DNA of 64,000 nt from Candidatus Collierbacteria bacterium RIFOXYD2_FULL_45_13 (lineage in GTDB: Bacteria > Patescibacteriota > Microgenomatia > UBA1400 > MFAQ01), in NCBI GenBank assembly GCA_001774685.1, contig MFAS01000001.1, positions 897,252 to 961,251 of the forward strand, in the 5' to 3' direction. This document shows, one piece after another, positions 1 to 63,730 of this stretch; the stretch's first letter is position 1; each line of letters opens with the position of its first letter. Made by a program: the position numbers and the translations under genes. The notes beneath the pieces were generated by a model that was not told where the DNA came from, ran no database searches, and saw only the letters and a list, made by a program, of their open reading frames with translations.

Positions 1-162
1 CAGACCATAAGATCCTGCCATCAGACAAAAACCCATGATCGTCAAGAGCAGCATGATTTTGAAAAACTGGTTTTCAAAGCTGCGAACGTTCCACATAATC
101 AAGAGAAACGCAAAGTACAGCAGACCCAGGACAACCACAAACAGACCAAACGATGCTTCCAT
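1..162 (-). CDS. small membrane protein, 3' end outside window; paralog of 591-827, 854-1090 and 1223-1450
   Basis: Manual translation MEASFGLFVVVLGLLYFAFLLIMWNVRSFENQFFKIMLLL...; AAGGAG SD upstream; not in ORF track. Confidence 0.75.
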   Translation of the reverse strand, partial: MEASFGLFVVVLGLLYFAFLLIMWNVRSFENQFFKIMLLLTIMGFCLMAGSYGL

Positions 163-272
163 CTCTATACTCCTTTAAAAATTTCAATTTGCGAACTTCA
201 AGTATTATACACCTCCGAATATATAGGACAGTTATGCTATAATTGTGCACAAATCTACTTCCGGAGGCAACC

Positions 273-506
273 TTGACAAAGCTGAAACCTGTTCTCTTCT
301 TTATGGCAACCATGCTCCTCTATCTGGTCGCTTTCTTCTTTTGGCAAACCCCCATTTTGAGTATCATCATCATGATCCTCGCCATGGGCTGCTCGTTCAC
401 TGGAGATTACTTCGTTGTTGGCACTAAGTGGGAGAAAAGGCTCTATTTCCTGGCCACAACCATGCAAATCATCCCCATTGTACTCTGGGCTTTCCTCATC
501 TTTTAA
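273..506 (+). CDS. small hydrophobic membrane protein
   Basis: TGcTATAAT promoter, GGAGG SD before TTG 273, 2-3 TM segments, terminator at 518-542. Confidence 0.65.
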   Translation: MTKLKPVLFFMATMLLYLVAFFFWQTPILSIIIMILAMGCSFTGDYFVVGTKWEKRLYFLATTMQIIPIVLWAFLIF

Positions 507-590
507 TCAAGCTCCCTCCCCGCCTCCCTGGCGGGATTTTTTGCACAAAAAATCCCGTACACAATGTACGGGATTAATAAGAAAATCGGA

Positions 591-827
591 CTACTCGTCG
601 AGCAGAGTTCCGCCCAGAATCACGAACTGAACTCCCAGGTTGACGATCCACACCAGGACTACGATCGTTGAACCGGACAGAGCCGCGAACAGAATGATCA
701 CGAGCAAAAAGAGGATTTTGAAAATCACGTATTCGACGGTGCGCACCTTCCACATGAGAAGCAACATCATCAAGTACAGCAACCCCAACCAAACAACAAT
801 CAGACCAAAAGGTAACTCCATAAACAT
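591..827 (-). CDS. small 3-TM membrane protein (paralog family A)
   Basis: GGAGG SD; shares LY..M, YVIFKI, IWIVNL.QF..LD motifs with 1223-1450. Confidence 0.75.
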   Translation of the reverse strand: MFMELPFGLIVVWLGLLYLMMLLLMWKVRTVEYVIFKILFLLVIILFAALSGSTIVVLVWIVNLGVQFVILGGTLLDE

Positions 828-853
828 TTAAGCCTCCAATACTCAAATCCAGT

Positions 854-1090
854 TTAGGTACGGGGATTGATGCGTCGGGAGATCAAAACTCCCAGCTGAA
901 CGAATCCAAAAATTCCCCAAAACACGGCTGGTGCATACAGACCACCTGCCAGATCAAAGGCCACAACCAAGATCGTAACGAGAAGCTGAAGCAGTCTGGA
1001 TTCAAAAGACCTGTCCATGGTGAAAATCATGGCCAAATACAACACGGTCATCAAGGTTCCAAGGACAATAAACGTAGCTTCAAGGATCAT
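854..1090 (-). CDS. small 3-TM membrane protein (paralog family A)
   Basis: AGGAG SD; LY..M, RSFE, GGLY motifs shared with neighbours. Confidence 0.75.
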   Translation of the reverse strand: MILEATFIVLGTLMTVLYLAMIFTMDRSFESRLLQLLVTILVVAFDLAGGLYAPAVFWGIFGFVQLGVLISRRINPRT

Positions 1091-1222
1091 TTTTCTCCTC
1101 TTGAGTCATTCAGAATTTCAATTTTGCGAACTTCGCCATAATTATAATACCCTATAGGCTACATGTCAAGCCTGGCGTTAAAAATCCCGCACATAATGTA
1201 CGGGAAATTGTGGAAACCAGGT

Positions 1223-1450
1223 TTAGTCATCAAGGATCATGTAAAGGAGCAAGAATTGGATTGCCAGGTTGACGATCCAGATGATGGCTGAGAAGTACAA
1301 GCCACCCAGCACACAAAAAAGGGTGATCGCGAGAACAAAGAATATCTTGAAGATTACGTAATCAAGAGTCTGCACGTCCCGCAAGATCACGAGCATAATC
1401 ACATAGAGTATGCACAAAATGACTGCCGTAATACCAAAAGTAAGTTCCAT
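1223..1450 (-). CDS. small 3-TM membrane protein (paralog family A)
   Basis: GGAGG SD; clear similarity to 591-827. Confidence 0.75.
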   Translation of the reverse strand: MELTFGITAVILCILYVIMLVILRDVQTLDYVIFKIFFVLAITLFCVLGGLYFSAIIWIVNLAIQFLLLYMILDD

Positions 1451-1462
1451 GTGAACCTCCTA

Positions 1463-1723
1463 CTATCGCTTCTCGCTTACATGAACGAGCTTCGTCTCGA
1501 AAGTCAGAACGTATGCACGGTGACGATCAGGCACGTCTACCGTCCGCTTGCACTTCGGACAATCGCACCAGAGACTTTTATATCCACCCATCTCACCCTG
1601 AGAATAGCCTTCCGAGATTTTGATTTCGTCAGGATGTTCCGGTGTAAAACGCTGGTCACAATGGCCACACTCCATTGCAATCTCACGATCAAATGTGACT
1701 GTTACGGTGCTCAAAAGTTTCAT
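1463..1723 (-). CDS. small zinc-ribbon protein
   Basis: CGHC...CPKC pairs; AAGGA SD; TATAAT promoter near 1768. Confidence 0.65.
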   Translation of the reverse strand: MKLLSTVTVTFDREIAMECGHCDQRFTPEHPDEIKISEGYSQGEMGGYKSLWCDCPKCKRTVDVPDRHRAYVLTFETKLVHVSEKR

Positions 1724-1791
1724 ATCCAGTCCTTTCTACTTGAGAATTTCAAGGTGTTTCAACCTATATTATACCCCAGTTCCATCAGTTC

Positions 1792-3342
1792 TCAACCCAG
1801 ACTTTTGGTCATATACTCCTCCTCAAGATCATACCCCAGCTTCTTGTAATACTCCCTGGTGCCGATAGCCGAAATTACCGCCATTTTCTTGAAACCCCGA
1901 TCTAGAGCAATCCCCTCCGCCTCCACCATCAACCTCTTCCCTAAACCCCTATGCTGACTCTCACTTCCTCCTGACTTGAGTTCTTGAGTTCTTGATTCCT
2001 TGAGTTCTCTTTCTATCTCCTTCACTTGTCCATATGTATGCACTTCACGAATTATGGCCGAGCCCTCCAGCTCTTTAAACAGCATATTCTCTCCGGCATC
2101 AGGCAACCTCAATCTCAGCATTGAAAACAACATATCTCCACTCTCAAACGATAAAAATATTTCTTTTCCACCCAAGGTTTCCCTTTCATCAATCGCGAGT
2201 TGTATTTCAGCATTATAAACACCGGCGCGGACTTCACGACAGCGGATACATCGGCACTTCTTTCCTTCCTTTTTAAGCTCTTCTTGGAGCATCTGCCTCA
2301 GATTCGTTCTCAAAGTCCCGGAACTTACCCACTGTTTACTGATATCCCGAACCAACCGGTCAATCCGGCACCAGCGGGGCGTCATCTTTTTTATCTCTTT
2401 CAAAACTCGTATCAAATCCGTGTCGTTGTAACTTTTATACTCCCCCCGCTTCCACATATTGAACAGCTCCGTCCCTGGGATCACCATAGCAGGATAAACT
2501 TTCAGGTAATCCGGCTGAAAACGAGGATCCGTAAACATAATCTTTGCCATCTCGATATCTTTTTCCGGTGTGCTTCCCGGGAGATTGGGCATAAAGTGGT
2601 AGCAAATCTTGATTCCTGCATTCCGGCACATCCTCGTGGCTTCGGCTACTTCGTCCAAAGAATGTCCCCTGTTTATTTTTTGCAATATTTGCTCATCAAA
2701 TGCCTGCACTCCCAGTTGAACTTTGGTTACCCCCATCTTTCTCCAGAGCACTATTTCTTCTTCGGTCACCCAGTCGGGTCTGGTTTCTACCGAGATACCC
2801 ACGATTCGTCTTTCTCCCGTCTCGTTGTATTTCTGCGCTTCCACTAGACTGCCAGCCTCAAAGCCATTTACCCCATCGTACATGCCCTTGAAAAACTCCA
2901 GTTTGTACTCATCGGGATAAGCCGAAAAGGTTCCTCCAATCACAATCAAATCAATTTTATTGGTAATGTGTCCGGTCTCTTCCAGCTGTTTCAGTCTCAT
3001 TTCTACTTGTAGATATGGATCAAACTTAAGCTTCTTGGCCCTCTGGGCGGCCGGCTCGTCCGATAGATAAGACTTCGGCATACCGGCCTCTAAGGGACAA
3101 TAAACACACTCCCCGGGGCAGTAGTGCGGTTTCATCATCACGGCAAATGGCGCAACCCCTGACTCCGTCCGCACACTTCTGGTCTTATACAACTCTCTGA
3201 TTTCCTCATCCCCCACAAAAGGCCATATTTCCGAGTTCTTAGGCATCCTCCCAAGCACCTTGGCCCATACCCGTCGATAGTCCTCCAAATTCTCAGGAGT
3301 GAGTTTTTCCGCATCCCTTCGCACCATTTCTTCAATTGACAT
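1792..3342 (-). CDS. elp3: Elp3 radical SAM/KAT tRNA U34 carboxymethyl-forming enzyme
   Basis: CPGECVYCP, GGTF, ETRPD, DYLKVYP, IIREVHTYG and QHRGLGKRLM motifs; leaderless start 6 nt after TACAAT. Confidence 0.93.
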   Translation of the reverse strand: MSIEEMVRRDAEKLTPENLEDYRRVWAKVLGRMPKNSEIWPFVGDEEIRELYKTRSVRTESGVAPFAVMMKPHYCPGECVYCPLEAGMPKSYLSDEPAAQRAKKLKFDPYLQVEMRLKQLEETGHITNKIDLIVIGGTFSAYPDEYKLEFFKGMYDGVNGFEAGSLVEAQKYNETGERRIVGISVETRPDWVTEEEIVLWRKMGVTKVQLGVQAFDEQILQKINRGHSLDEVAEATRMCRNAGIKICYHFMPNLPGSTPEKDIEMAKIMFTDPRFQPDYLKVYPAMVIPGTELFNMWKRGEYKSYNDTDLIRVLKEIKKMTPRWCRIDRLVRDISKQWVSSGTLRTNLRQMLQEELKKEGKKCRCIRCREVRAGVYNAEIQLAIDERETLGGKEIFLSFESGDMLFSMLRLRLPDAGENMLFKELEGSAIIREVHTYGQVKEIERELKESRTQELKSGGSESQHRGLGKRLMVEAEGIALDRGFKKMAVISAIGTREYYKKLGYDLEEEYMTKSLG

Positions 3343-3449
3343 CTCTATATTGTACCTCACAGAACTTGACTTTTAGCCACAACTGTGATATTATATAGGC
3401 TGTTCGTACGTACACTTCCAACTTAAAAAACAGCCCAAGGAGGCCAAAA

Positions 3450-3830
3450 ATGGCAACATTTTCTTTCTACTTCCTCAGTTTTGCCTGGCCTCTGGCTCTA
3501 GGCATCTTTTTTGGACTCCTATCCAACAAAGTAAACCGTGGTTCATTCTGGTGGATCGTCCCCCTCCCTACTCTGGGGATATTAGTCTGCTTGTCACTCT
3601 ACACCAGCGTCTGGTACGGCGTTGCCTTTGCGGTCATGTCTTTGAGCGGACTACTGACCGGAGTAATTTTCAAAAACAGGAACTTGGGAAAGTTCCAAGT
3701 TGGTTTTGTTTGGGGTTTTCTTCCCCTAATTGGCCAGCTAATTGCGATTACCCTATTGCTTATCTCTGGCGATCGCACCACCCACAGTTCTGGAGGAAAT
3801 ATCCAGCACGCTCACGGCAGTCATGATTAG
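3450..3830 (+). CDS. hypothetical membrane protein
   Basis: TTGACT/TATTAT promoter, AGGAGG SD, about 4 TM segments, terminator 3838-3863. Confidence 0.75.
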   Translation: MATFSFYFLSFAWPLALGIFFGLLSNKVNRGSFWWIVPLPTLGILVCLSLYTSVWYGVAFAVMSLSGLLTGVIFKNRNLGKFQVGFVWGFLPLIGQLIAITLLLISGDRTTHSSGGNIQHAHGSHD

Positions 3831-3899
3831 GTTTCAAGCGCCCCGCAATTTGCGGGGCGTTTTCTATGACAAAAGGCCCGGTCACCCGGGCCACGAAAA

Positions 3900-4256
3900 C
3901 TAATTCAAGAAGTAGAAAAGGGCTTCGCTCAACTCACGCTGGTTAACTTCGAATTCGAAGGGGAACCCCGCGTCATCTTCGTTCGGTGAGATAACTACCA
4001 GCTTTTCGCCATTTACATCTAACCCCCAAAAATCCAATTTCCCGACGGTCTGTATTGTACTCAGCTGTTTTAGTGCCATTTCCAACTTTTTTCCATCTAT
4101 CCGGAACTCCATCTTTCCCCTACTTCTTGGAAACTTGATCCACATATACAGATTCGACACCTCGATATATCCACCGGGAACATCCACCATCCAGACTCGG
4201 ATTGGTGCATTCTCGGCCTTCAGGGGTGCTCGCTTCCTGGGTGCGGTATTGGCCAT
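3900..4256 (-). CDS. hypothetical protein
   Basis: GGAGG SD before ATG 4256; own terminator near 3872-3892. Confidence 0.7.
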   Translation of the reverse strand: MANTAPRKRAPLKAENAPIRVWMVDVPGGYIEVSNLYMWIKFPRSRGKMEFRIDGKKLEMALKQLSTIQTVGKLDFWGLDVNGEKLVVISPNEDDAGFPFEFEVNQRELSEALFYFLN

Positions 4257-4348
4257 TTCTACCTCCAAATTTCAAACGTACGATTTTGATTATTTTAGTT
4301 CAATCATTGTGTAAACGCAAGCTATAGGATCTAGTGTAAAATATTCCC

Positions 4349-4987
4349 ATGCCCGAAATTCCCGGAAAAATTCAAGATCTGAGAGCTACTTACAACGAAA
4401 TTGGGATCAATTTTAGCGCCTCACGTGGCTATATCTGGCCAGACCTCAAGCCATTTCTTGTAGATGTAACGGAAAACAATTCTGTCCTTGACGTTGGCTG
4501 TGGTAACGGCAGACTACTACTAGGATTACCGGAAAAAGTTAAATACACCGGTATTGATTTTTCGACTGTATTATTGGAAAAAGCAGTCGGCCTGCATCCC
4601 AACGCCCATTTTATCGAAACAGACATCACCAAACCCGATGTCTGGAATCATTTGCCAAAATTCGATTTTATTTTCTGCATCGCTGTCATTCATCATCTAG
4701 CCACCCGCAAAGACCAGCTCTATGTTCTCACTCAAATCAAAAAACATCTCAAGCCTGGCGGTAGGTGTCTTATCACTGCTTGGAACCTATGGCAACCAAA
4801 GCTCCTCAGACACCACCTAGATCTAAAAACCAAAGTCCAGAACCGCCACCATGTCTACATTCCCTTCCAGGGAAAACCACGCTTCCATTTCGCTCACACC
4901 AAACCCTACCTGGAAGGCCTTCTGCGGGAGGCTGGCTTAAATTTGAACGTGACCAAGACGTCCCGAAACTATCTTCTCCATAACTAA
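4349..4987 (+). CDS. class I SAM methyltransferase, Trm9/ALKBH8-like
   Basis: YNEIG..FS.SR..WP, VLDVGCGNGR, FDFIFCIAVIHHL, LKPGGRCLITAW motifs; leaderless. Confidence 0.85.
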   Translation: MPEIPGKIQDLRATYNEIGINFSASRGYIWPDLKPFLVDVTENNSVLDVGCGNGRLLLGLPEKVKYTGIDFSTVLLEKAVGLHPNAHFIETDITKPDVWNHLPKFDFIFCIAVIHHLATRKDQLYVLTQIKKHLKPGGRCLITAWNLWQPKLLRHHLDLKTKVQNRHHVYIPFQGKPRFHFAHTKPYLEGLLREAGLNLNVTKTSRNYLLHN

Positions 4988-8346: not shown

Positions 8347-8403
8347 AGGCACAGGTGGTAAAATTCACCAATCTTTGTTTGCATCTTAACATCGGAGGTA
8401 TCT

Positions 8404-8664
8404 ATGAACACCTTTCTTCTCGTCACAGACGTGGTTCTTTTAGCTATATTCGGAGCTTCCATGATCAGTGATTTCGTTCTTTTTGTCCACCAAGGCAGAC
8501 ATCTTGTTCCTTCTTATTATCAGACCATTTCCCTGATCTTTCTGCTTATGGGTATCGTTAATTTCGGCCTAATGGTCTTCATCAGTGAGCTGGCCTTCAA
8601 CCTCTTTCTAATCGCACTGGGGTGCCTATTCATCTCTGCTTGTTACGCATGGTGCGCCAGGTAA
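8404..8664 (+). CDS. small membrane protein
   Basis: GGAGG SD; 3 TM segments. Confidence 0.7.
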   Translation: MNTFLLVTDVVLLAIFGASMISDFVLFVHQGRHLVPSYYQTISLIFLLMGIVNFGLMVFISELAFNLFLIALGCLFISACYAWCAR

Positions 8665-8680
8665 CAACAAGGAGCCTCAA

Positions 8681-9041
8681 AATGACTTTTCAAAGCGGTA
8701 GATGCGTGAACTGCGATTCGCCAATATCCACAGGCATTCTTTGTCAGAGTTGTACCCCAAGCGTGCCCAGCGTAGCAAACCGAGAGCCAACCATCGCTGA
8801 TATGACCTCCGGCCAATCAGGTTATGTGGCTGAATATGCTGTTTTTAAAGCCGAAGGCATGATCATGCTAGTCGGGTCAGCCAAAATCACCACAGAGATC
8901 AGCCGTTATCAGACCGTCCGAATTACCAAGCGGAATGATATTTACGAGGTCGATAGCCAGACCATCGCCAGTTGGGATATCTACGAGGGCTGGCCACAAG
9001 CAAAAGAAGACACCGACTATCTCTTGGCCAAGCTGGTCTAG
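8681..9041 (+). CDS. hypothetical protein with N-terminal Zn finger
   Basis: AGGAG SD; CVNC...CQSC. Confidence 0.7.
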
Positions 9042-9063
9042 ACACTCAATAAAGGAGAACTGT

Positions 9064-9564
9064 ATGTTAATTTTCGCCCGTGGTTTTTCGGAACGTCTCA
9101 ATATCATTGCCACAGCCAATCGTCCCCCGGTGACCACCCTTTCCTTTGCCGAAATCACCGAGCTATGTAAGCTAGCCGGTTATCGTTTATCTAAGGTGAA
9201 CGAAACCATGTTCACCATCTTTCATCATGATGGCAAACACGGTCTGGACAATGGCCTCTATATCATCTGGCACGTCCTTCCGGACCACCGCGGTCTGGCC
9301 TACTATCCTACGTTGCAGCCGTTATATTCCCGCGGTAAAAATCATCAACTGCTGGACGAGATGCTAAAGCACCTTGCCTCGTTTTTGCCCAATATTGGGT
9401 TTAAGTCCGAGATTGTCTTCTCCCTCCAGGAAGAGATCGTGGTTCTTCCGGAAGAACTTAAAGCTCGTAACTCAGGCATTGAAGTTATGCTTCTTTCCGA
9501 GTTCCAAGCCAAGTACAAACCTCTTTACCGCTTCCTGCAAGAAAAAATGGTCACCCCTCGCTAA
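9064..9564 (+). CDS. hypothetical protein
   Basis: AAGGAG SD before ATG 9064; terminator near 9608-9632. Confidence 0.7.
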   Translation: MLIFARGFSERLNIIATANRPPVTTLSFAEITELCKLAGYRLSKVNETMFTIFHHDGKHGLDNGLYIIWHVLPDHRGLAYYPTLQPLYSRGKNHQLLDEMLKHLASFLPNIGFKSEIVFSLQEEIVVLPEELKARNSGIEVMLLSEFQAKYKPLYRFLQEKMVTPR

Positions 9565-9673
9565 TCACCAACCTCGCCACTCGTGGGCAGGGACAGCATT
9601 CATTCTAAAGCCGCGTAAACGCGGCTTTTTTTGTATCTAAATTTCCAAAAAATGGTAAAATTAGCTTCGTAAG

Positions 9674-10163: not shown

Positions 10164-10336
10164 CGACCAAAACCACCCTCTAACTACTATATATGTCCAA
10201 AGAAATTGATCCTAGACAAGCCATTTATTCTGCTCAAACAATTGTTCAGGAGATGCGGGGCTTTTTCATATAAAATATACCCTGACTTCCCCACTGTATA
10301 ATCCATAACATACACTTTGAAATAAGGAGATTGCCT

Positions 10337-10570
10337 GTGAGTATCACCACCTTACTTCCTGTCGTCTTGTACGTTCTGATCGCCATCGAAATCACCATCA
10401 CTCTATTCACTGACGCACTCAAGAGCAAACCACTCACCTCTATTGTTTTGATCATTGGAATAGCTATCAGTAGCCTACTTTTTGCCTTAAACAGCCCATT
10501 CGTTGCCATCTGTTGGCTGTCTCTCCCCACCATAGCCACATACAACCTACTCAAACTGTACCGTAAGTGA
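10337..10570 (+). CDS. small membrane protein
   Basis: TATAAT promoter, AAGGAG SD, 3 TM segments, terminator. Confidence 0.65.
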   Translation: MSITTLLPVVLYVLIAIEITITLFTDALKSKPLTSIVLIIGIAISSLLFALNSPFVAICWLSLPTIATYNLLKLYRK

Positions 10571-10608
10571 TCCTCCACCCGCCCTAAGGTGGGTTTTTTT
10601 ATTAATAT

Positions 10609-49360: not shown

Positions 49361-49430
49361 ATTTTACCATCCCCCGCTACCTCCGGGTGCTCTCTTGCAT
49401 TTTCTACCCCATCACTCTATAATCCCCTTT

Positions 49431-50046: not shown

Positions 50047-50081
50047 TCAGTCTCGCAAATTATTAAATTAAATAAACAAAC

Positions 50082-50459
50082 ATGTCCGAGAAAGTCACAA
50101 AACTCGTTGATCAAGTAAGCGAACTCTCCGTTTTGGAAGTTGCTGAGCTTGTCAAAGCTTTAGAGGAAAAGTTTGGTGTCTCTGCCGCTCCAGTCGCCGT
50201 CGCCGGTGGCGTAGCCGCAGCCGCCGCTGCTCCTGCTGAGGAAAAGACCGAATTTGACGTCGTCGTCACTGACGCAGGCGCCAATAAGATCGCCGTTATC
50301 AAAGCTGTCCGCGAGATCAAAACCGATCTAGGTTTGGTCGAAGCCAAAAACTTGGTTGAGAAAGCCCCCGCTACCATCATGGAGGGAGCCAAGAAAGAAG
50401 ACGCCGAAGCCGCTAAGAAGAAACTCGAAGAGGCAGGTGCCAAGGTCGAACTCAAATAA
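50082..50459 (+). CDS. rplL: 50S ribosomal protein L7/L12
   Basis: [26 protein letters not shown]. Confidence 0.98.
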
Positions 50460-50566
50460 TTTATTTATTGAGTAACAGAAAAACCCGCCGTAAGGCGGGT
50501 TTTTAATTGTAATTTAATACGCCCGTAACCATAAAATTCCCCGCCGTAAGGCGGGGGCAATTCACT

Positions 50567-50953
50567 TTATTCCACAACATAAATCTTCTTCTGTCCGTGG
50601 GCTCCACGGTTTCTCCCGTGAGCTCCAACTTTTTCGGAGTTATAAATTACTTCAATCACGGCCTCACCGGTAAAAATCATTTTCAAATTTCCATTGGCAT
50701 CCGGCTCTACCAAAATCGCAGGGGCCTGGCCAACATAGCGGATATTCGTCTTACCGATTCTAGATACCGGCAGTGAACCTTGTACCCCTCGTTTAACGTG
50801 CACAACCTCTAATGGGACTTTGCAAAAAGATGAGGCAATACCGATAAAAGCTTCCATCTCACCGGCCAAACCCGTCTTGGTCGAAAGTGAAAGTTCTCCA
50901 GAGGAGAGTTTGGCTCGTTCCAAGCTATAGCGATCATCTAATTGTTTAATCAC
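50567..50953 (-). CDS. hypothetical protein
   Basis: GGAGG SD; terminator near 50539. Confidence 0.65.
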   Translation of the reverse strand: MIKQLDDRYSLERAKLSSGELSLSTKTGLAGEMEAFIGIASSFCKVPLEVVHVKRGVQGSLPVSRIGKTNIRYVGQAPAILVEPDANGNLKMIFTGEAVIEVIYNSEKVGAHGRNRGAHGQKKIYVVE

Positions 50954-51067
50954 TCAAGGCCTCCAAAATGATTTAATGTACTTCGGTAGTGCTGGCTGAA
51001 ATTCTACCACAATTAGACCGATTATCCATATTGACTAACTATATTCTTTCTGATAACTTGTATATCA

Positions 51068-51316
51068 ATGGACAACAACCAAGACACAACCCAAACTCTA
51101 AAAACCAAAAAGGCTTTAGATTTGAATAACCTTCCCGACCTTTTAACCGTGTCTGAAGTTGCCCAACTCCTACGCGTCTCCACCCTCACCATCAAACGCT
51201 GGGGAAAAAGAGGTAAGCTCCCGGCCATCAGAATCAATTCGCGAGGTGACCGACGCTACAAAAAAGAGTCGGTCCTTTGGATGCTTGGTATCAACCCCGG
51301 CAGTTCGAACTCTTAA
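51068..51316 (+). CDS. stand-alone excisionase/BldC-type HTH (HTH_17) DNA-binding protein
   Basis: LLTVSEVAQLLRVSTLTIKRW..RGKLPAIRINSRGDRRY. Confidence 0.9.
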   Translation: MDNNQDTTQTLKTKKALDLNNLPDLLTVSEVAQLLRVSTLTIKRWGKRGKLPAIRINSRGDRRYKKESVLWMLGINPGSSNS

Positions 51317-52131
51317 GCTTTCCACTTCAGGCTTTCTCTGAACACCAACCATGGAAACACAATCACCGCCCGCATGATCCGTCCCAGCCTCTTAGGTTCG
51401 ACCATCACCCTCCAAAGCCACTTGAGTCCCATTCGTTCCATCCAAACAGGAGACTTCTTAAAATCTCCCAAATATTCATTGAAGGTACCGCCCACTCCCA
51501 TTGCCATTCCAACACTCAGTCGAGGTAAGCGGGAAGCAATCCATTTTTCCTGTTTCACCGGATTGTACTGAACAAACAGAATGTCTGGTTTCCAACTATT
51601 AATCTTTTTTACCACCCGGTCATCCGTAGTCCTGTCGGTGCCAACGCGATTTTCTCCAGCGTCATACATCACTCTCAGTTTTGGAAACCGTTTTAGAAGC
51701 ATTGTGGCAGTTCGTGAGCTCACATCTCCCCATCCACCGAGCAGAAATATCTTCCAACCGCGCTTTTCGGCCAAAGCGTTTAGTTCTTCAAACAGCTTAA
51801 CTCCTGTCACCGTCTCTCCGATTGTGCCGGCCAAAATATCCCTTCCGACTTTTACCCCTTCGATTACCTTGCCAAAAACGTTCTTTCCTTTTGCCTTCTT
51901 CAGATACTTCACTGCCGCCAGTACCGAAACCCCGTCAGGTGTTACCAGGTCGGCTTTTTTGATCACGTCCGCAAAAAAATTGTCGTTTTGGGCTGCAACA
52001 AAGAATTCGCTATAGGCAGTCACCACAAGTCTAGGTTTCTTGCGCGGCTGTTTCAGCCAACGGTTAATGGTGTCTATAGTCTCCTTCCGACTTAGCAAGT
52101 CTACCGGTATACCCAAAACTTCTGATCTCAT
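51313..52131 (-). CDS. WecB/TagA/CpsF family glycosyltransferase
   Basis: PDG.SV, PDILFV...KQEKW, GVGGTF, GLKWLWR...EPKR. Confidence 0.9.
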   Translation of the reverse strand: MRSEVLGIPVDLLSRKETIDTINRWLKQPRKKPRLVVTAYSEFFVAAQNDNFFADVIKKADLVTPDGVSVLAAVKYLKKAKGKNVFGKVIEGVKVGRDILAGTIGETVTGVKLFEELNALAEKRGWKIFLLGGWGDVSSRTATMLLKRFPKLRVMYDAGENRVGTDRTTDDRVVKKINSWKPDILFVQYNPVKQEKWIASRLPRLSVGMAMGVGGTFNEYLGDFKKSPVWMERMGLKWLWRVMVEPKRLGRIMRAVIVFPWLVFRESLKWKA

Positions 52132-54862: not shown

Positions 54863-56206
54863 GTGAACCGAACTCCTTCCAGAAATCCGAAAGGACGCCG
54901 CTTAACCGTTAATCTCTTCATCGTCCTCTTCCTCATCGTAGGCACGTTTGTGGCTATTCAGTTTGCCAAAGGCTACCGCCCAAATCTACAGAATCGCTCC
55001 TTGAGTGGCACCGGTCTACTAAGTGTCACCTCATACCCAAAGTCAGCCAGAGTCATCATCAACGACAAGCTGACTACAGTCACAGACGACAAACTCTATC
55101 TCCTACCCGGCAGCTACACCGTCAAGATCGAAAAAGATGGTTTTCATCCATGGGTCAAGACGCTACCCATAAAAAACGAACTGGTGACCTCCAGTGACGC
55201 CCGTCTCTTCCCTATTATCACCGCCACCTCTCCTCTCACTTTTTACCAAGTCAAAAACGCCGCCCTAAACACAGACGGAACCAAAATAGCCTACGTTCTC
55301 AAAGACTCACCTCAAGAAATTACCAATGGTCTCTACATACATTCACTCTCCGGCAATTTACTCGGCTCCTCCAACGTTCAAATTAGCGAAAACTCTCCCA
55401 AAGATTTTTCCCAAGCTCTACTCATCTGGTCGCCAGACAGTTCTCAGATATTGGCCATCTTCATCGACAAGATTCCTGCCACAAAAAATACCAGACAAAC
55501 CGAGCGCGTCTCCGCAGCCTATTTACTTTCCACCAAAGGTATAAACTCAAGAACCATGTCCGATGTTACTCTCAGACTTCCGTTGATTATTAGTGAATGG
55601 CAAGATCAATTTGCCAAGTTGAATCTGCCTACCCTAAACCTCTTCCCCAAGTATATGGTCGAGATCTTGACCAAAAAAGCAGGCAATGTGTACTTCTCTC
55701 CCGACAAAGAAAAAGTCTTCTATACCGCACTATTAGACGTCTCACTCCCAGAAAATGAGATTGCCAAAGCTCTACCAAATGTCAACTCTACCCTAGAATC
55801 AAGAAACCTCACCAAAGATCAAACTTACCTTTTTGATCTCAAAGAAGGCACCAATTACCTTTTACCTTTCGCCACCAAATCGTCTGAACTTACCAAAGAT
55901 CTAATCGTTTCCGTTTCAGCAACCCCATCTGCCAGTCTCTCTCTTATCCGCCAGCTAAAGGCTCAAACCGAAAGCCGGTTAACCACCAACCTAACCTGGT
56001 ACTCCAATAGCCGACAAATCATCGTAACCAACCCAGATGGGGTCAATATGGTCGACTATGACGGAATAAATATGGTCAACGTCACCTACGTGCAACCCCT
56101 AGATGGCTTTGTAGCTACCTCCCCAGACGGAGGCAAACTCGTTCTTCTCACAAACATAAATCAAAAACCAGATATTTTTAATCTCATTACTTTCGACCTG
56201 AAGTAA
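54863..56206 (+). CDS. PEGA domain membrane-anchored protein with beta-propeller-like repeats
   Basis: TGLLSVTSYPKSA...PG.Y.V.IEKDG; SPD repeats. Confidence 0.85.
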   Translation: MNRTPSRNPKGRRLTVNLFIVLFLIVGTFVAIQFAKGYRPNLQNRSLSGTGLLSVTSYPKSARVIINDKLTTVTDDKLYLLPGSYTVKIEKDGFHPWVKTLPIKNELVTSSDARLFPIITATSPLTFYQVKNAALNTDGTKIAYVLKDSPQEITNGLYIHSLSGNLLGSSNVQISENSPKDFSQALLIWSPDSSQILAIFIDKIPATKNTRQTERVSAAYLLSTKGINSRTMSDVTLRLPLIISEWQDQFAKLNLPTLNLFPKYMVEILTKKAGNVYFSPDKEKVFYTALLDVSLPENEIAKALPNVNSTLESRNLTKDQTYLFDLKEGTNYLLPFATKSSELTKDLIVSVSATPSASLSLIRQLKAQTESRLTTNLTWYSNSRQIIVTNPDGVNMVDYDGINMVNVTYVQPLDGFVATSPDGGKLVLLTNINQKPDIFNLITFDLK

Positions 56207-56971: not shown

Positions 56972-57073
56972 CAACCTACCGACCACATTGACCTATAGCT
57001 TGACTTTTTACCCAAGCCAAGCTACAATTTCCCCAGACTGATCTGATCTTTGATATTTGAGAAGGAGACAAAA

Positions 57074-57514
57074 ATGAACGGATTCATTCGTTGGCTCATT
57101 GCCAGTCTTATTTTCGGCACTTTGTACGTAATTGGCCTCGGAACCATTGTCTACGTTTTTGCCCCGACCTTCTTCACCACCGCGTACGGTGTCGTTTCAA
57201 CCAATTTTCTCTTCTTTCCTTTGTGGATTACCTCTGGCATGGCCGGCATCACCATCGGCACTCCCAGACAACCTACTGAGCTTTTTACCAGAACTGACGA
57301 CCCGTGGTACAACACTATCCTGGTGATGATTGAGAACATTCTTATCTCCGGCCTTATGCTTCTCATCGCCTACTGGATCAGCAAACTGGCTTTTGGCTTC
57401 ATCATTACCAGTTTACCTATTGTATGGTTAGCCCTCTTCTTCGTGGTCATCATCATGCATGCTTGCAGCGCCGGCTACCGAGCCATCCGCTGGAACCAAA
57501 AAGAAGAGATATAA
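57074..57514 (+). CDS. 4-TM membrane protein
   Basis: TTGACT/TACAAT promoter, AAGGAG SD. Confidence 0.75.
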   Translation: MNGFIRWLIASLIFGTLYVIGLGTIVYVFAPTFFTTAYGVVSTNFLFFPLWITSGMAGITIGTPRQPTELFTRTDDPWYNTILVMIENILISGLMLLIAYWISKLAFGFIITSLPIVWLALFFVVIIMHACSAGYRAIRWNQKEEI

Positions 57515-57621
57515 ACAAAACACTTTCATCCCCGCTTTGTAGCGGGGATTTTACGTATGATATACTTCGACTATAGGCGAAGAGCCTTGCACTTTCATTT
57601 TTTTCAAGAAACAGGAGAAAT

Positions 57622-58359
57622 ATGACTGCAAAAGCCCCGAGTATTTCCATCAAAGGCGTCCTTGAAAGTATGGTCTCCGTCCTTCCTACTGCCACGCAGC
57701 AGAACAAGTTACCTCTACTGGAAAGAAGTCTTGAGGATCTGAACACCGGAGAATTTTTCGCCTTCGAAGCAGTCGAGGGAAAAATCGAAGAGCTCGAAGC
57801 CAAACTCAAAGCAGAAAAAGTTCGTCTGCAAATGGCCAGTCTTGGCTACCCCCAGTTGGATTATTCCTTCCTGACCTGGCAAAAAAAAGAATCCAAAATG
57901 CCGGCTTTTATGGTACTCACCCTTGATTCCAACGAGTTCTCCATTATTGTTGAGCCAAATACCAGCCGTGCTATGGATATCGAGAACGACGTCATCTGGT
58001 CCATCGAGCCAGACCTTCCCGAAGCTGTCCAGTGGCAATACGAAAATTCGATTCTGGCTATCGCCCGGCTCTCCAACAGGGATTACGATGACGAAGAAAT
58101 CTCCGTCACGGCCCAGTTTCAAGGAGTCATGCCGTCTGAGGTACGCACCGAGGTCAGACGGGTTCTCGAAGCAGAGATCTTTGACGACATCTTTGTCATC
58201 TGCGAAGCTCCTAAGTGGGTCGTTAACAAGACCGGCCGCACTTCGCTAAGAGACCCCCTGGTCGTCGGCTGGGACGAAGAGACCGATCAGATGTTCCTGA
58301 TTGCCTCTTTCGACCCCACAACTTTGGAAAAATACGTCCAAGACCAATTCGCCTTATGA
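57622..58359 (+). CDS. hypothetical acidic protein (DPLVVG motif, phage-like)
   Basis: AGGAG SD; terminator near 58376. Confidence 0.75.
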   Translation: MTAKAPSISIKGVLESMVSVLPTATQQNKLPLLERSLEDLNTGEFFAFEAVEGKIEELEAKLKAEKVRLQMASLGYPQLDYSFLTWQKKESKMPAFMVLTLDSNEFSIIVEPNTSRAMDIENDVIWSIEPDLPEAVQWQYENSILAIARLSNRDYDDEEISVTAQFQGVMPSEVRTEVRRVLEAEIFDDIFVICEAPKWVVNKTGRTSLRDPLVVGWDEETDQMFLIASFDPTTLEKYVQDQFAL

Positions 58360-58407
58360 AGTAGCAATCTGTACACCCCGCCAACGGCGGGGTTTTTATT
58401 TTTAAAG

Positions 58408-58479: not shown

Positions 58480-58570
58480 GTAATATATTTTAACTCCTGA
58501 GATGCTGCCAACTTCACATTTTACTACTTTTGGCCACAAAAAAGCTCCCCATTGCTGAGGAGCCAGCGTC

Positions 58571-58888
58571 TCAATTTACTGTGACTACCGAAGGTCGATT
58601 CGAACTTGGTAGAATGGCAATCTTCCCCTCCAAAACCGCTTCTTTTAGACCGGACTCACGCCAGGAACCCTTAATACCATAGATGCCATATTTGGCATCT
58701 TGACCCCGGACAAAAGCCTGTCGCACAAAGGTATATCGTCCACGAGGCAGATCCTCTGTGGGCATAACTACGAATACGTTGACCTCTTCTGCACCATCCG
58801 GCCACGGATTCACAATCCTGGGTGCCGGAACCGGCGGCTCAACCGATTTTCTTCCGGTAAACCATTTCTTCACGTTTGACAGTTTCAT
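58571..58888 (-). CDS. hypothetical protein
   Basis: AAGGAG SD before ATG 58888. Confidence 0.65.
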   Translation of the reverse strand: MKLSNVKKWFTGRKSVEPPVPAPRIVNPWPDGAEEVNVFVVMPTEDLPRGRYTFVRQAFVRGQDAKYGIYGIKGSWRESGLKEAVLEGKIAILPSSNRPSVVTVN

Positions 58889-58899
58889 TTCGTCTCCTT

Positions 58900-59196
58900 C
58901 TAATCGAACACTCGCTCTACTTCCGCCTGACCAGACTCTATCAGATCTTTCCACCATCGTTCTGCCGCCCCCACCACTTTTCCCTCGGTTACCATCCACG
59001 GATCGGTAAAGCCAAAAGGATTGGGAATACGATGCAAAGTATGTGATGTACCCACCCCAACCTCGGCAGGCGGATTTTTTCGTTCCGTATCCATCAAGGT
59101 CACGTCTATTAAAATCTTGACCCTGCAGCTGTCGGTGTTCGGCCAGATGTTGCAAGGACGTGTCACTTTGATTTTGAACCAATTTTTCCAGTCCAT
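58900..59196 (-). CDS. hypothetical protein, possible distant paralog of 58571-58888
   Basis: GGAGGAG SD; K.WF...N.WP motif. Confidence 0.65.
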   Translation of the reverse strand: MDWKNWFKIKVTRPCNIWPNTDSCRVKILIDVTLMDTERKNPPAEVGVGTSHTLHRIPNPFGFTDPWMVTEGKVVGAAERWWKDLIESGQAEVERVFD

Positions 59197-59265
59197 GGGC
59201 ACTCCTCCGACTAAATTTTCAAACTACCCGGCTATTCTAGCAGACCCTATAATGACAAGCAACCT

Positions 59266-60873: not shown

Positions 60874-60949
60874 ATATATAAAGATGATACACCACCTACA
60901 TATAACCACAAAAAAGCCCCCAGTTTCCCGGGGGCAAGTAAAAAGAAAT

Positions 60950-61342
60950 TTACCTGGTGACATCGTGCCTGAAATTACTATTCCGCAAAGTCGCAACGTT
61001 GCCACTCGTATCATACTTAAGCATCAAAGCTTCAAGCCTCTCAAGAAATCCGTCTGATACTTGCCCCGTTTGAAAAGAGCCAGACAAGTAGCCCACGGAT
61101 ACAGGCTGAACCATAGGTCCACCGCGTGTCTGTCGTCGCTCACCACCTGTACAATCAACAGTCATAACATCATCCACAAATGCCGTTGGGGGAAGCCAGT
61201 TGTGATCAGCCACGTAGTGCAAAATCATGTCCGGCATCACCCAAGCTCGCCCATTCGCAAACCGTAAAGTTACGTCACCACTGCTCTGATGACAAAAGAT
61301 CGATTGTTTATCGTGAGGGTAAGTACATTCATGCCATCCCAT
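60950..61342 (-). CDS. hypothetical protein, tandem paralog 2
   Basis: MG.H.C, GD..L.F.NG...MPDM.LHYV.DH.WLPP..F. Confidence 0.75.
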   Translation of the reverse strand: MGWHECTYPHDKQSIFCHQSSGDVTLRFANGRAWVMPDMILHYVADHNWLPPTAFVDDVMTVDCTGGERRQTRGGPMVQPVSVGYLSGSFQTGQVSDGFLERLEALMLKYDTSGNVATLRNSNFRHDVTR

Positions 61343-61754
61343 CTTTTTTCTCCTTATTTCTCGGCGCCACCATCCAGGGATAATCCTTAGCGGCGATTTC
61401 ACACAACCGCACCAGTTTTTCCTTGAACTCAGCTGTCACTTCTCCGATAGAAAAATCTCCTTGCAAATACCCAATCTTCATATCGATCGGTTTGGGATCC
61501 ATAAGCCCCTTCGTTTGAAAGCGTTCTGTCTTTACCGATTCCGCGTCAAAGCTCAGAACGTCAACAATGAACTCTTGCGGTGGCAGCCATTGGTGATCAA
61601 AGACATAGTGAAGTACCATGTCCGGCATCTCAAACCTGTCTCCATTTGGAAAAACCAATATGATGTCACCGGTACTCGATGGATCGTAGATATGCTCCAG
61701 ATGCTCAGTGAAACCGTGATCCTCCAAGCAATATACACACATATGCATTCCCAT
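61329..61754 (-). CDS. hypothetical protein, tandem paralog 1
   Basis: GGAGG SD; same motif as paralog 2. Confidence 0.75.
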   Translation of the reverse strand: MGMHMCVYCLEDHGFTEHLEHIYDPSSTGDIILVFPNGDRFEMPDMVLHYVFDHQWLPPQEFIVDVLSFDAESVKTERFQTKGLMDPKPIDMKIGYLQGDFSIGEVTAEFKEKLVRLCEIAAKDYPWMVAPRNKEKKDGMA

Positions 61755-61838
61755 ATAACCTCCGAAAATGTCAATATACTTTCACCCTATATTATACACC
61801 ACAAAAAAGCCCCAGGTTCCCCGAGGGCTTAGTAAAAA

Positions 61839-62714
61839 CTAACGATACGCGTCAACATCGAGGTGATAGAGCGACACGATTTGGCCGCCAACTTCTCGAA
61901 AATAGATGGCGGGTCCGTTGATCACCCAATCAAGTCTGGTCTCTGACATACCCAAGGTAAAACCGCCTTGCATTTCGGACACGTCACGGCTTCCCTTTTC
62001 GTCCATTTTGAGATGGGCGTAGATATGAGCAAAGTCCAGATGGATACCGGGAGCCTGAATACCAGTCATCCAAGGCAGATCTTCGCGGATTTCTATGTCC
62101 GTCATGGGCACAGTGAGAGATCTAACCGGCACCACTTTGTTGGCTTTCAGCATTCTCTCGGCCGCTTGATACAAAGCCCAACCGGTCAGAAGATGATCAT
62201 GTTGAGCCAGGTAAACATGTCCGCCTTCCACCACTTCGGTCATGAAGGTCGGGGTTTGAAATCCTGCCCCGACGTTGTCAAAACCTACAACGGCCGGCTC
62301 ATCCGTGGAACCCATCTCGCGAGCCATAAGTTTGAAGGCCAAACGACCACCACACGCTCGGTAGGGCTGGTAACGATCATCTGTTTTTCGACCCTTAAGC
62401 TTCCAGCCAGTCTCTATCTTTTGGCGGGCGACCACCCCCAGATCCACAAAATCACGCAGAGTGAGATGTAGGTCACTTGGAACTATAGTCTGCAGGCGTT
62501 TGAGGGTTGTCTCAGCCCAGGCCTCTACAGTCATTCCGGGTGTCTTCGCGAAAGCTTCCAGTCCGGCGATCCACTCGGGAAGCATCCTCACAAAGCCTAC
62601 CTGTTCATCCGAAGGAATTCCTGCCAACCAATGTGCTTCAGGCGTTCCCACAAAGCTAGCCGCCGTGGCAAACATCTTGGCACCAATCATCGTCGGAAAT
62701 ACTTGTGATGACAT
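61839..62714 (-). CDS. hypothetical protein
   Basis: AGGAG SD; own promoter and terminator. Confidence 0.75.
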   Translation of the reverse strand: MSSQVFPTMIGAKMFATAASFVGTPEAHWLAGIPSDEQVGFVRMLPEWIAGLEAFAKTPGMTVEAWAETTLKRLQTIVPSDLHLTLRDFVDLGVVARQKIETGWKLKGRKTDDRYQPYRACGGRLAFKLMAREMGSTDEPAVVGFDNVGAGFQTPTFMTEVVEGGHVYLAQHDHLLTGWALYQAAERMLKANKVVPVRSLTVPMTDIEIREDLPWMTGIQAPGIHLDFAHIYAHLKMDEKGSRDVSEMQGGFTLGMSETRLDWVINGPAIYFREVGGQIVSLYHLDVDAYR

Positions 62715-62833
62715 AATTCTCCTTTTTGAGCACAAAGCCCTGTTTCAGTTTTTCAGAGTTCAAAACACCCCATATTGTAACATAAAACCCCGCTCTCTTT
62801 CGAGAACGGGGCATGGTTCGATCAGGCGCAAGA

Positions 62834-63646
62834 CTAAATAATGATAATTAGCTTTGTGCCAAAGAGATTAGACGGATCTAGCCGGTCCACCAACCCAAAG
62901 ATGGGGTAAGTGCCCGGATAATTTCCGGACGCTGTTTGAACCGACAGGGTAAGCGACTCTCCGGCAGGCACAGTGCCACGCCAAGAGAGAGTGATCCCGG
63001 TGCGGTTTCCCTCAAGCCAATAAACCTCACCACCTGAGAAAGAATAGTTTGTACTACCATCCGTTCCCGCGTGGAACACCGTCATCGCCATGTCAAAGGG
63101 CAGATCCAGGTTGGTCTCGTTGGTTAATGTGAGGTCAACGAAGAAAATCACCCCACCCCTGCTGACCACATCAGGCGCGCTCGAGGTGACCGTTAGGCGC
63201 GGTTCCTGGATCTGGATCATCGCCTGGTGCAAAGTCCAGGTGTTTTCTGCAGACACCAACGTCTGCGATCTGGAGATGTCCGACCGGAGAGTTACCTCAA
63301 AATCAATTTTTGCCACTCCCCCGCCATTCAAGATGACTCCGTTCCAAACAAAAACAAAATCGGTCTCGTTGGACCGGTCGACGATGCGTCCATCGAACTT
63401 GGTTACTTCAACCGCCGCCACAACACTTTTCGAGAAGCTGATTCTCCAACCCTTAACCAGGGCAGGACGACGGTTGTTGTTCCTTGCAACGATGGATACC
63501 TGGACAGTTTCACCCTGGTAAGCAGTGGTCGGGGCCACCACCGACAGGCTCAGGGGCGCCAAAGCCGCCTGAGGCATGGCCAACACGGGAGTGAAGCTCA
63601 CGCCAAGCAAGACTATGGCCAGAAGCAATACTGCAATCTTCTTCAT
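62834..63646 (-). CDS. secreted protein with two Ig-like (DUF11-like) repeats
   Basis: Signal peptide; two AP....G....N...W.G....G repeats. Confidence 0.75.
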   Translation of the reverse strand: MKKIAVLLLAIVLLGVSFTPVLAMPQAALAPLSLSVVAPTTAYQGETVQVSIVARNNNRRPALVKGWRISFSKSVVAAVEVTKFDGRIVDRSNETDFVFVWNGVILNGGGVAKIDFEVTLRSDISRSQTLVSAENTWTLHQAMIQIQEPRLTVTSSAPDVVSRGGVIFFVDLTLTNETNLDLPFDMAMTVFHAGTDGSTNYSFSGGEVYWLEGNRTGITLSWRGTVPAGESLTLSVQTASGNYPGTYPIFGLVDRLDPSNLFGTKLIIII

Positions 63647-63730
63647 AATATTCACCTCTTTTCAATGTTCAGGATTTTTCAAACAGCCGTTATCATAGCA
63701 CGAAAACACCAATATTGCAAGATTATGGGC

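Follow-up and report, generated by a model that had tools for sequence, protein, structure and literature searches.

Accessory gene units headed by a boxA-type leader motif in a Candidatus Collierbacteria genome

RESULTS

Motif-led units in the window

The 64,000-nucleotide stretch analyzed here (the window) comes from RIFOXYD2_FULL_45_13, a bacterium of Candidatus Collierbacteria, and covers C1:897252-961251 of its single-contig, 1,089,434-base genome (G000). Near homologues of one window protein also bear the label Candidatus Collierbacteria, as expected of a Microgenomates-type patescibacterium. Dispersed between its core operons are short units in which an inferred transcription start is followed by an 11-nt motif resembling the boxA of rRNA leaders, a Shine-Dalgarno (SD) site, one to three open reading frames (ORFs), and usually a predicted intrinsic terminator. 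Motif sites were scored in bits with a matrix trained on mRNA leaders (main cut, 7 bits; relaxed cut, 5 bits), and transcription starts were inferred from -10 boxes throughout. Genes came from a purpose-written caller, with starts assigned by a mixture model; the caller is approximate, with three errors among about 85 window genes (the rplJ start and the missed ORFs 1463-1723 and 20248-20589), and class counts therefore carry a few per cent of noise. An initial annotation of this DNA had quoted 16 motif sites, all of which are exact, each with a -10-like hexamer on one side and, on the other, an SD or SD-like site rich in purines; two of them, at 4269-4281 and 41384, score poorly on the matrix. 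Its count of more than 30 units holds at the relaxed cut, since 32 true SD-led first genes reach 5 bits: among 41 SD-led first genes (39 from the caller and 2 added by hand), 33 score at least 5 bits and 27 at least 7 bits, or 32 and 26 once the miscalled rplJ is dropped. A terminator of their own, also claimed initially, is predicted for 28 of the 32.

At the left edge lies a minus-strand unit of the motif-led class, read from the sequence, whose ORF runs past the window edge (1..209; -10 box 204-209, boxA 182-192, SD 170-173, ATG 160-162). Two paralogous minus-strand units follow, 578..1146 (ORFs 854-1090 and 591-827, -10 box 1141-1146, boxA 1116-1126 at 5.1 bits, terminator 578-625, no Pfam match) and 1178..1773 (ORFs 1463-1723 and 1223-1450, -10 box 1768-1773, boxA 1747-1757 at 10.3 bits, terminator 1178-1204). 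Further on are 3389..3866 on the plus strand (ORF 3450-3830, boxA 3418-3428 at 6.7 bits, terminator 3840-3866) and 3868..4297 on the minus strand (ORF 3900-4256, -10 box 4292-4297, terminator 3868-3891), where the boxA-like site at 4269-4281 has one extra base and scores 3.6 bits. The plus strand then carries a three-gene unit at 8359..9606, in which all three ORFs (8404-8664, 8682-9041, and 9064-9564) are SD-led and boxA (8381-8391, 8.6 bits) precedes the first gene only, followed by 10297..10601 (ORF 10337-10570, boxA 10312-10322 at 10.4 bits, terminator 10578-10601), 20207..20956 (ORFs 20248-20589 and 20617-20922, boxA 20224-20234 at 7.9 bits, terminator 20931-20956), and 22958..23558 (ORF 23009-23524, boxA 22969-22979 at 8.0 bits, terminator 23534-23558).

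Next on the plus strand come 27895..28930, which encodes a 317-aa protein (ORF 27939-28892, boxA 27911-27921 at 10.4 bits, terminator 28906-28930), 28960..29556 (ORF 29019-29513, boxA 28978-28988 at 10.1 bits, terminator 29531-29556), 29591..30094 (ORF 29632-30060, boxA 29607-29617 at 8.8 bits, terminator 30069-30094), and 30097..31021, whose ORFs 30142-30582 and 30566-30985 are paralogues of 29632 (boxA 30113-30123 at 9.4 bits, terminator 30998-31021). No terminator was called for the plus-strand units 31271..31664 (ORF 31338-31664, boxA 31310-31320 at 8.0 bits), 31840..32063 (ORF 31875-32063, boxA 31851-31861 at 8.6 bits), and 35981..36650 (ORF 36033-36650, boxA 36000-36010 at 10.9 bits), or for 61329..61796 on the minus strand (ORF 61329-61754 with a DUF7919 domain, boxA 61769-61779 at 7.7 bits). 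The minus-strand unit 33681..34700 (ORF 33731-34642, boxA 34690-34700 at 10.4 bits, terminator 33681-33709) could not be given a -10 box. Three further plus-strand units are 36685..36968 (ORF 36737-36919, boxA 36704-36714 at 5.9 bits, terminator 36937-36968), 36999..37447 (ORF 37055-37414, boxA 37028-37038 at 6.3 bits, terminator 37423-37447), and 37466..38069 (ORF 37507-37836), in which a boxA-like site at 37489-37499 overlaps the SD (1.1 bits), an overlap also found in the relative G303. A minus-strand unit follows at 39118..39440 (ORF 39151-39393, boxA 39415-39425 at 10.7 bits, terminator 39118-39143).

The slot between nusG and rplK holds five units: 41366..41733 on the plus strand (ORF 41409-41672, boxA 41384-41394 at 6.6 bits, terminator 41710-41733), 41738..42303 on the minus strand (ORFs 42022-42243 and 41777-42010, boxA 42265-42275 at 8.8 bits), 42350..43027 on the minus strand (ORFs 42538-42981 and 42389-42550, boxA 43004-43014 at 10.3 bits), 43774..44663 on the plus strand (ORFs 43820-44272 and 44286-44627, boxA 43795-43805 at 10.0 bits), and 44696..45163 on the plus strand (ORF 44737-45111, boxA 44715-44725 at 8.7 bits, terminator 45138-45163). 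The slot between rplA and rplJ holds two minus-strand units, 47080..48793 with a 558-aa ORF (47081-48757, boxA 48783-48793 at 11.2 bits) and 48902..49366 (ORF 48941-49321, boxA 49331-49341 at 10.3 bits, terminator 48902-48929). The remaining units are 50530..51006 on the minus strand (ORF 50567-50953, boxA 50971-50981 at 9.5 bits, terminator 50530-50556), 57023..57556 and 57561..58399 on the plus strand (ORF 57074-57514, boxA 57045-57055 at 8.4 bits, terminator 57529-57556; and ORF 57622-58359, boxA 57589-57599 at 7.9 bits, terminator 58377-58399), and, on the minus strand, 58537..59239 (ORFs 58900-59196 and 58571-58888, boxA 59217-59227 at 6.6 bits, terminator 58537-58562), 61802..62779 (ORF 61839-62714, boxA 62751-62761 at 10.7 bits, terminator 61802-61826), and 62781..63697 (ORF 62834-63646, boxA 63660-63670 at 11.4 bits, terminator 62781-62810).

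The motif marks SD-led transcripts and matches boxA

The anti-SD is intact at the 16S rRNA 3' end of G000, and the 1188 genes of the genome comprise 416 leaderless genes, whose start codon mostly lies 6 nt past a -10 box, 300 coupled genes without an SD, 246 SD-led genes, and 226 without a signal. When the regions before 235 confident SD genes were searched de novo, a single 11-nt motif emerged, present in about 70% of them, with the matrix G(0.73) Y/A A(0.72)/T C(0.78) N T(0.78) T(0.91) R A(0.90) M A(0.77). Using dinucleotide shuffles and the reverse strand as background controls, we found sites of at least 7 bits upstream of 122 of the 246 SD genes, compared to 12.2 in shuffles and none on the reverse strand, which bears out the enrichment over a composition-matched background that was expected if the initial annotation was right. 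A matrix trained on half of the genes likewise found a site for 51 of 118 held-out SD genes (5.8 in shuffles), and widening the search window by one base gave 126 motif-led genes. Sites precede non-SD genes at shuffle level (10/416 leaderless, 10/300 coupled, and 8/226 unclassified), and the motif is at background inside genes too. It is strand-specific and lies downstream of the -10 box. Because boxA is present before 125 of 208 first SD genes but only 1 of 38 internal SD genes, the motif marks transcripts rather than start codons.

The motif is very probably a genuine boxA, the RNA site for the NusB-S10 (NusE) dimer, as judged by its match to known sites. In the 16S leader of G000, a -10 box is followed 6 nt on by GCTCGTTAACA, and the mRNA-derived matrix scores the 16S leader site at 10.9 bits and the 23S site at 11.2 bits, values reached by only 79 and 57 of 2,178,848 positions, respectively; the likeness to the genome's own rrn boxA proposed initially is thus borne out. 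Scanning the genome blind, the matrix picked out 200 sites that score 10 bits or more, 76 of them intergenic; 58 of these lie in gene leaders, and the remainder include the 16S and 23S leader boxAs. The boxAs of Escherichia coli and Bacillus subtilis score 12.0 and 10.6 bits (sequences from PMC13753749 and PMC5725501), and the inactivating E. coli variant C4T/T6C falls to 5.7 bits (PMC5725501). The T7 epsilon 11-mer scores 0.5 bits, compared to 10.6-12.0 for four rRNA boxAs. The motif agrees with the boxA consensus, including the critical positions C4 and T6, and the strict gamma-proteobacterial consensus occurs 0 times in G000. Both nusB and rho, which the initial annotation had singled out for a check, are encoded in G000, together with rpsJ, nusA, nusG, and an S4 gene recognized from sequence only. 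The SuhB/Inositol_P family was not found in G000 (the control matched 14/14), and the rrn-type set of NusA, NusB, S10, NusG, SuhB, and S4 therefore lacks SuhB among the matches.

Anatomy and cargo of the units

Motif-led leaders are about 27-49 nt long, with the motif beginning 22-38 nt before the start codon and median distances from boxA of 6 nt both to the inferred transcription start and to the SD. The end of boxA lies at most 20 nt from the start codon in 63 of 100 units in G000 and in 65 of 81 in G313, a genome from another genus, and boxA begins within 1 nt of the inferred transcription start in 19 of 100 units. As at the E. coli suhB gene, boxA is thus found within about 50 nt of the start and adjoining the SD; nusA, nusB, rpsJ, and nusG all fall outside the SD and motif classes, so that Nus-gene autoregulation of the suhB type was not seen. 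The boxA score does not track SD strength in G000, and no trade-off between the two was found. We also rejected boxA as a co-adapted anti-SD hairpin (0.169 vs 0.189 with swapped sites) and a dependence on the C-rich strand (motif strength, p=0.13; G313, p=0.55).

Most motif-led units (103/125) have a single gene, and 19 of the 38 internal SD genes come after a motif-led gene. Genes behind leaderless genes, on the other hand, are SD-less: of 161, 96 are coupled and 6 have an SD. In G000, intrinsic terminators were predicted for 110/125 units with the motif and 57/83 SD units without it, and for 52/320 leaderless and 32/193 unclassified units, with a detector that fires at 30 of 300 mid-gene control positions, and in G313 for 81 of 84 motif units compared to 40 of 191 leaderless units. 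These findings uphold the proposal of a separate expression class, with boxA, SD, and intrinsic terminator on one side and no SD and few terminators on the other. The statement that housekeeping genes are leaderless stands as far as they are SD-less, but they are not all leaderless: the 723 first genes of G000 comprise 321 leaderless, 208 SD-led, and 194 with neither signal, the last including rplC, rpsM, nusA, rho, and rpsA (some named from sequence). Core units mostly lack predicted intrinsic terminators, the leaderless fraction being near the 10% control. The same terminator bias, in weaker form, is seen in two genomes without Rho matches (28/78 and 28/69).

Pfam matches were obtained for 12 of 94 motif-led genes (all those in fetched loci outside the window) compared to 74 of 110 leaderless first genes (drawn randomly from 195), a contrast that persists in length bins below 300 aa. 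The annotated motif-led cargo includes NAD-salvage enzymes, a PP2C phosphatase, an ABC transporter, and an L,D-transpeptidase; a membrane helix is predicted in 60 of 126 motif-led proteins, and third-position GC is 0.54 in motif-led genes versus 0.47. Strong intergenic boxA-like sites with no called gene after them occur at C1:828405, 755396, 661802, 254882, and 214324 of G000, one of them directly after a tRNA-like 3' end, and may head non-coding transcripts or missed genes.

Units turn over as wholes

For a comparison of slots, the region was fetched from 20 of 25 relatives with an rplK match. At nusG-rplK and rplA-rplJ, congeners and G313 hold different, mostly non-homologous boxA-SD genes (2-9 genes in the rplA-rplJ slot), while in G326 and G330, from the same order, the core genes are contiguous in these slots. 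In units held in common, motif-led proteins are 23-78% identical compared to 87-97% for rplK, and the leader boxA is retained, often as another variant; the boxA at 43004-43014 (minus strand) is kept in 4 of 4 congener orthologues despite 49-56% protein identity. G313 yielded the same motif de novo (88/155 SD genes), and boxA is kept in 9 of 12 classified orthologue pairs between G000 and G313, whose proteins are mostly 25-52% identical. Over the 818 of 905 kb of G313 searched, homologues were found for 13 of 126 motif-led proteins (median identity, 35%) versus 238 of 416 leaderless ones (65%).

The protein of ORF 27939-28892, which is uncharacterized and has invariant Cys/His pairs and a GWRKR motif, has scattered relatives in the Candidate Phyla Radiation (CPR), Nanoarchaeota, Clostridia, and, with an alignment as the query, 34 viral contigs; the viral contigs with relatives are large. 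Viral searches with two single unit proteins as queries gave no match. A usable start was available in 69 of 107 loci of its homologues. Among the copies examined, a boxA scoring 7 bits or more lies before 11 of the 30 from CPR, compared to 1 of the 11 from viral contigs and 1 of the 15 from Clostridia. Four loci labelled Pseudomonadales or Gammaproteobacteria (L225, L228, L234, and L262) carry close homologues, three with boxA-type leaders, and may be mis-binned CPR.

Units are gained and lost whole, but the dedicated mobile cassette type that the initial annotation considered is unsupported. Comparing 126 units by 16-mers, a method that does not search for degenerate structured sites, we found no recombination site or repeat common to their flanks; unrelated units had 16-mers in common in 1 leader pair and 5 trailer pairs, counts that carry no chance control. 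A Pfam search likewise found no recombinase among 82 window proteins.

Distribution across Patescibacteria

A strict pattern of boxA core, SD, and ATG was counted against a swapped-letter control; a backward control was dropped as unfair because it reverses the SD too. The pattern is enriched in G000 (28 vs 3), six congeners (22-37 vs 2-10), and G313 (24 vs 2). Four other genera of the same family gave 0-5 versus 1-4, 17 genomes from the same class 49 versus 56, and E. coli 20 versus 15, which is no enrichment. Across 301 genomes of the phylum, in tallies that take in G150 (0 vs 2), on which none of our conclusions rests, the count was 1221 versus 1008, with 16 genomes enriched at p<0.05 and 1 depleted, kin not being independent. 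The trait is patchy in Patescibacteria and strongest in this genus. In loci of ten enriched genomes, the unconstrained first position of ORF-leading sites was G in 17 of 20 and 10 of 26 cases. In G016 and G298 (200 kb each, from regions partly picked at pattern matches), the first SD genes with the motif number 12 out of 40 and 18 out of 41 (shuffles, 1.9 and 1.7), terminators are predicted for 12 of 12 and 17 of 18 motif units, and Pfam matches were found for 9 of 32 genes; a de novo search in G298 gave the same motif. A phylum-wide excess of promoter-proximal boxA irrespective of SD was not supported (296 vs 282 in 62 genomes, with family f18, E. coli, G000, and G313 excluded).

NusB was matched in 277 of the 301 genomes and in 14 of the 15 other enriched genomes. 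Family f18, with 2 weak matches in 15 genomes, appears to lack NusB and shows no boxA enrichment (43 vs 56; second count, 107 vs 183; 1/17 in its member G163); that f18 reads TGA as sense was unsupported in G163 (coding density, 0.816 vs 0.818). A search for Rho in 80 chosen genomes gave matches in 24 and none in the other 56, at 94-100% genome completeness; its absence is consistent within families and unproven for single genomes. It is present in G000 and 9 of 10 family members searched; of the 15 other enriched genomes only one gave a match, and there was none in families f27 (0/6), f61 (0/8), f20 (0/6), f75 (0/2), f59 (0/3), f76 (0/3), f104 (0/3), f72 (0/1), and f90 (0/1). The ribosomal protein bS21 controls SD use in Bacteroidia. 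It was not found in family f1, which includes G000 and its relatives (0/10 and 0/6), while most genomes of the same order have it; a tie between bS21 loss and the signal was rejected, as bS21 is present in several enriched families and absent from f1 genera without the signal.

Contrast genes and other features of the window

All seven genes named initially as leaderless contrasts start 6 nt past a -10 hexamer and have no SD, although the label C39 peptidase given to one has no Pfam support at E<=1e-5. Leaderless genes of this class are a radical-SAM (Elp3-like) gene at 1792..3342 (minus strand; start 6 nt past the -10 box), a methyltransferase gene at 4349..4987 (plus), two genes at 20953..22854 (minus; an ATP-grasp gene at 21652-22854 and 20953-21594 without a Pfam match), a WecG/TagA gene at 51313..52131 (minus), and a PEGA-domain gene with a GTG start at 54863..56206 (plus). 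The core anchors, all on the plus strand, are leaderless secE with coupled, SD-less nusG (40485..41297), rplK-rplA without an SD (45348..46648), and rplJ-rplL, leadered without an SD (49522..50459). The rplJ start lies at about 49522, giving 174 aa as in relatives; rplJ was rejected as a boxA unit, its apparent SD-led start being a wrong start call.

The rplA product (uL1; 45779-46648) has 289 aa and a Pfam match in its C-terminal half only (168-280), with relatives of 245-317 aa. A 2150-aa protein without a Pfam match and with a Thr/Pro-rich repeat at its end (11354-17806) is probably a surface protein. The region 52132-53730, between the WecG and mreB genes, is AT-rich (GC 0.34 in 52001-54000) and has short ORFs only. 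A 176-aa gene (7386-7916) abuts tRNA-Thr(GGT), which comes after it; an HNH-domain ORF (9714-10163) overlaps the end of tRNA-Thr(TGT); and a partial tRNA-Tyr 3'-end copy lies near 8325-8345. From end to end of the chromosome, the sign of the GC skew stays the same (22/22 50-kb bins in G000; 40/41 pieces in G313), a pattern already described in Collierbacteria and relatives as probable one-way replication (PMC7143001).

DISCUSSION

boxA has so far been regarded as a signal for rRNA that acts on few mRNAs in any one genome. Phage morons are self-contained promoter-gene-terminator units, and in RfaH/ops operons acquired genes are marked in cis for a factor of the Nus family. Unlike in these systems, we see no prophage, integrase, or ops-type paralogue, the signal is the boxA of the host's own rRNA, and the units lie scattered among core operons. 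The rRNA antitermination complex comprises NusA, B, E, G, SuhB, and S4 (PMC13753749, PMC10931766), and NusB binds Bacillus boxA (Tran et al., PMC13753749). Like the boxA of rrn leaders and spacers, the motif here has an 11-nt consensus, lies near the transcript 5' end, and accompanies intrinsic terminators (PMC13753749, PMC10931766); unlike it, the motif stands on translated one- to three-gene mRNAs, has mostly A rather than T at position 3, and occurs without SuhB. boxA upstream of CRISPR arrays in Gammaproteobacteria protects long untranslated RNA from Rho (PMC13753749), which is likewise a co-option of host Nus factors at a non-rRNA, horizontally changing locus, but here the units are short and translated and occur also without Rho.

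The closest parallel is the boxA that lies within the suhB 5' UTR of E. coli and Salmonella (and of Citrobacter CKO_00699), where, as here, a short mRNA leader places boxA 6 nt from the SD, NusB-S10, NusG, and NusA are encoded, and C4 and T6 are critical (PMC5725501). Gamma-proteobacteria have 0-7 strict-consensus sites per genome, from which few targets per species are expected, and these frequently encode Nus factors or serve translation (Baniulyte et al. 2017, PMC5725501). Here, by comparison, about 125 transcripts carry boxA (a matrix count, and so a different measure from the strict consensus), nearly all encoding orphan accessory genes, with no nusA, nusB, or rpsJ among the targets, no SuhB found, and Rho-less genomes included. 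No description of boxA-led mRNAs in CPR was found in the literature searched, whose coverage left out most subscription journals; what we report is a genome-scale use of a known signal that is undescribed in that literature.

We favor, with a probability of roughly 0.4, the reading that Nus loading gates ribosome access to the accessory units on about 125 transcripts, as it does at suhB. NusB-S10 would bind boxA as the leader leaves RNA polymerase, would stay tethered to the polymerase via NusG, and would keep the 30S subunit off the adjoining SD. The units could then form one regulon, whose translation would have to wait for a low level of free NusB-S10 or for release at the unit's terminator; the accessory pool would thereby be coupled to ribosome synthesis, and core genes with leaderless or coupled SD-less starts would be untouched. 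We prefer this gating because the geometry equals that of suhB, with a 6-nt median from boxA to SD and boxA mostly ending at most 20 nt from the start codon. A position that close to the start codon lies inside the ribosome footprint. The initial annotation overlooked this sole tested precedent for boxA beside an SD, in which the Nus complex represses translation (PMC5725501); since the translational block at suhB needs the polymerase-bound complex but not Rho, gating is compatible with Rho-less genomes.

Several findings weigh against gating. SuhB was not found in G000, whereas suhB repression needed the full Nus complex (PMC5725501), and strong promoters and strong SDs on a repressed pool are odd. 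boxA is no nearer the SD than the transcription start (p=0.76), and its score is independent of SD strength. Because five homologues of the 27939 protein have a boxA-like site (6.9-9.6 bits) but no SD, the link between the two is not obligatory. A de novo search in G016 missed the motif although the matrix detected it, and since most NusB-positive Patescibacteria show no enrichment, the co-occurrence with NusB rests on one lineage.

A positive role independent of Rho, in which bound NusB-S10 curbs pausing, shields the 5' end, or hands the SD to the 30S subunit, would most simply explain why each new unit brings boxA and orthologues retain it, and it fits the frequent position of boxA at or near the first transcribed base as well as Rho-less genomes and SD-less leaders. 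We nevertheless consider it unlikely, given that NusB-bound S10 cannot join the ribosome (PMC10931766), internal SD genes manage without boxA, an openable boxA-SD hairpin is not co-adapted, and the sole mRNA cases tested are repressive (PMC5725501). The terminator contrast between motif-led and leaderless units first suggested antitermination against Rho, the textbook function of boxA (PMC13753749), by which a boxA complex would make polymerase Rho-immune, so that acquired genes escape silencing and need intrinsic terminators; the contrast is as expected if the core ends by Rho, and Rho is present in G000 and nearly all family members searched. Such antitermination may add to the effect in this family, but as the general purpose, which the initial annotation had entertained, it is quite improbable, because all but one of the 15 other enriched genomes gave no Rho match; nine families lack Rho matches, and two such genomes keep the design with its terminators. 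Short units, the absence of SuhB from the matches, and equal motif strength on the C-rich and G-rich strands also speak against it.

S1 binds boxA RNA. G000 encodes a multi-domain S1 (383 aa) and the motif lies just upstream of SDs, as would be expected of an A/U-rich, S1-read translation enhancer of the T7 gene 10 epsilon type rather than a Nus site. That explanation is very unlikely, since the motif is sequence-specific at G1, C4, T6, T7, and A9, the epsilon word scores far below rRNA boxAs, internal SD genes lack the motif, and even in distant genomes its unconstrained positions 1 and 3 agree with boxA. We give least credence to a functionless passenger of a donor pool, such as phage or plasmid morons, or a mark of cassette recombination: the same slots do hold different units in different congeners, viral contigs encode relatives of one unit's protein, and third-position GC differs, but the strict strand specificity, the retention of boxA in diverging orthologues, its rarity before viral and clostridial compared to CPR homologues, and the near absence of flank sequence common to unrelated units all argue otherwise.

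In this genome, about 125 of the 723 transcription units begin with boxA, which thereby divides the genome into two classes and labels, at the sequence level, the rapidly changing pool of orphan genes in Patescibacteria. It also gives NusB-S10 a testable job in bacteria lacking Rho and SuhB, and boxA leaders are ready-made variants for reporters and genetic tools in cultivable CPR strains. We tentatively suggest, while regarding it as somewhat doubtful, that some Patescibacteria use two expression grammars, in which acquired genes get a promoter, boxA, SD, and terminator while core genes are SD-less and mostly without intrinsic terminators, and NusB-S10 may serve as a Rho- and SuhB-independent switch over about one-tenth of the genome. 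If true, xenogeneic control would have a counterpart at the RNA level that is linked to ribosome synthesis, and the retention of NusB in reduced genomes after the loss of Rho would be explained.

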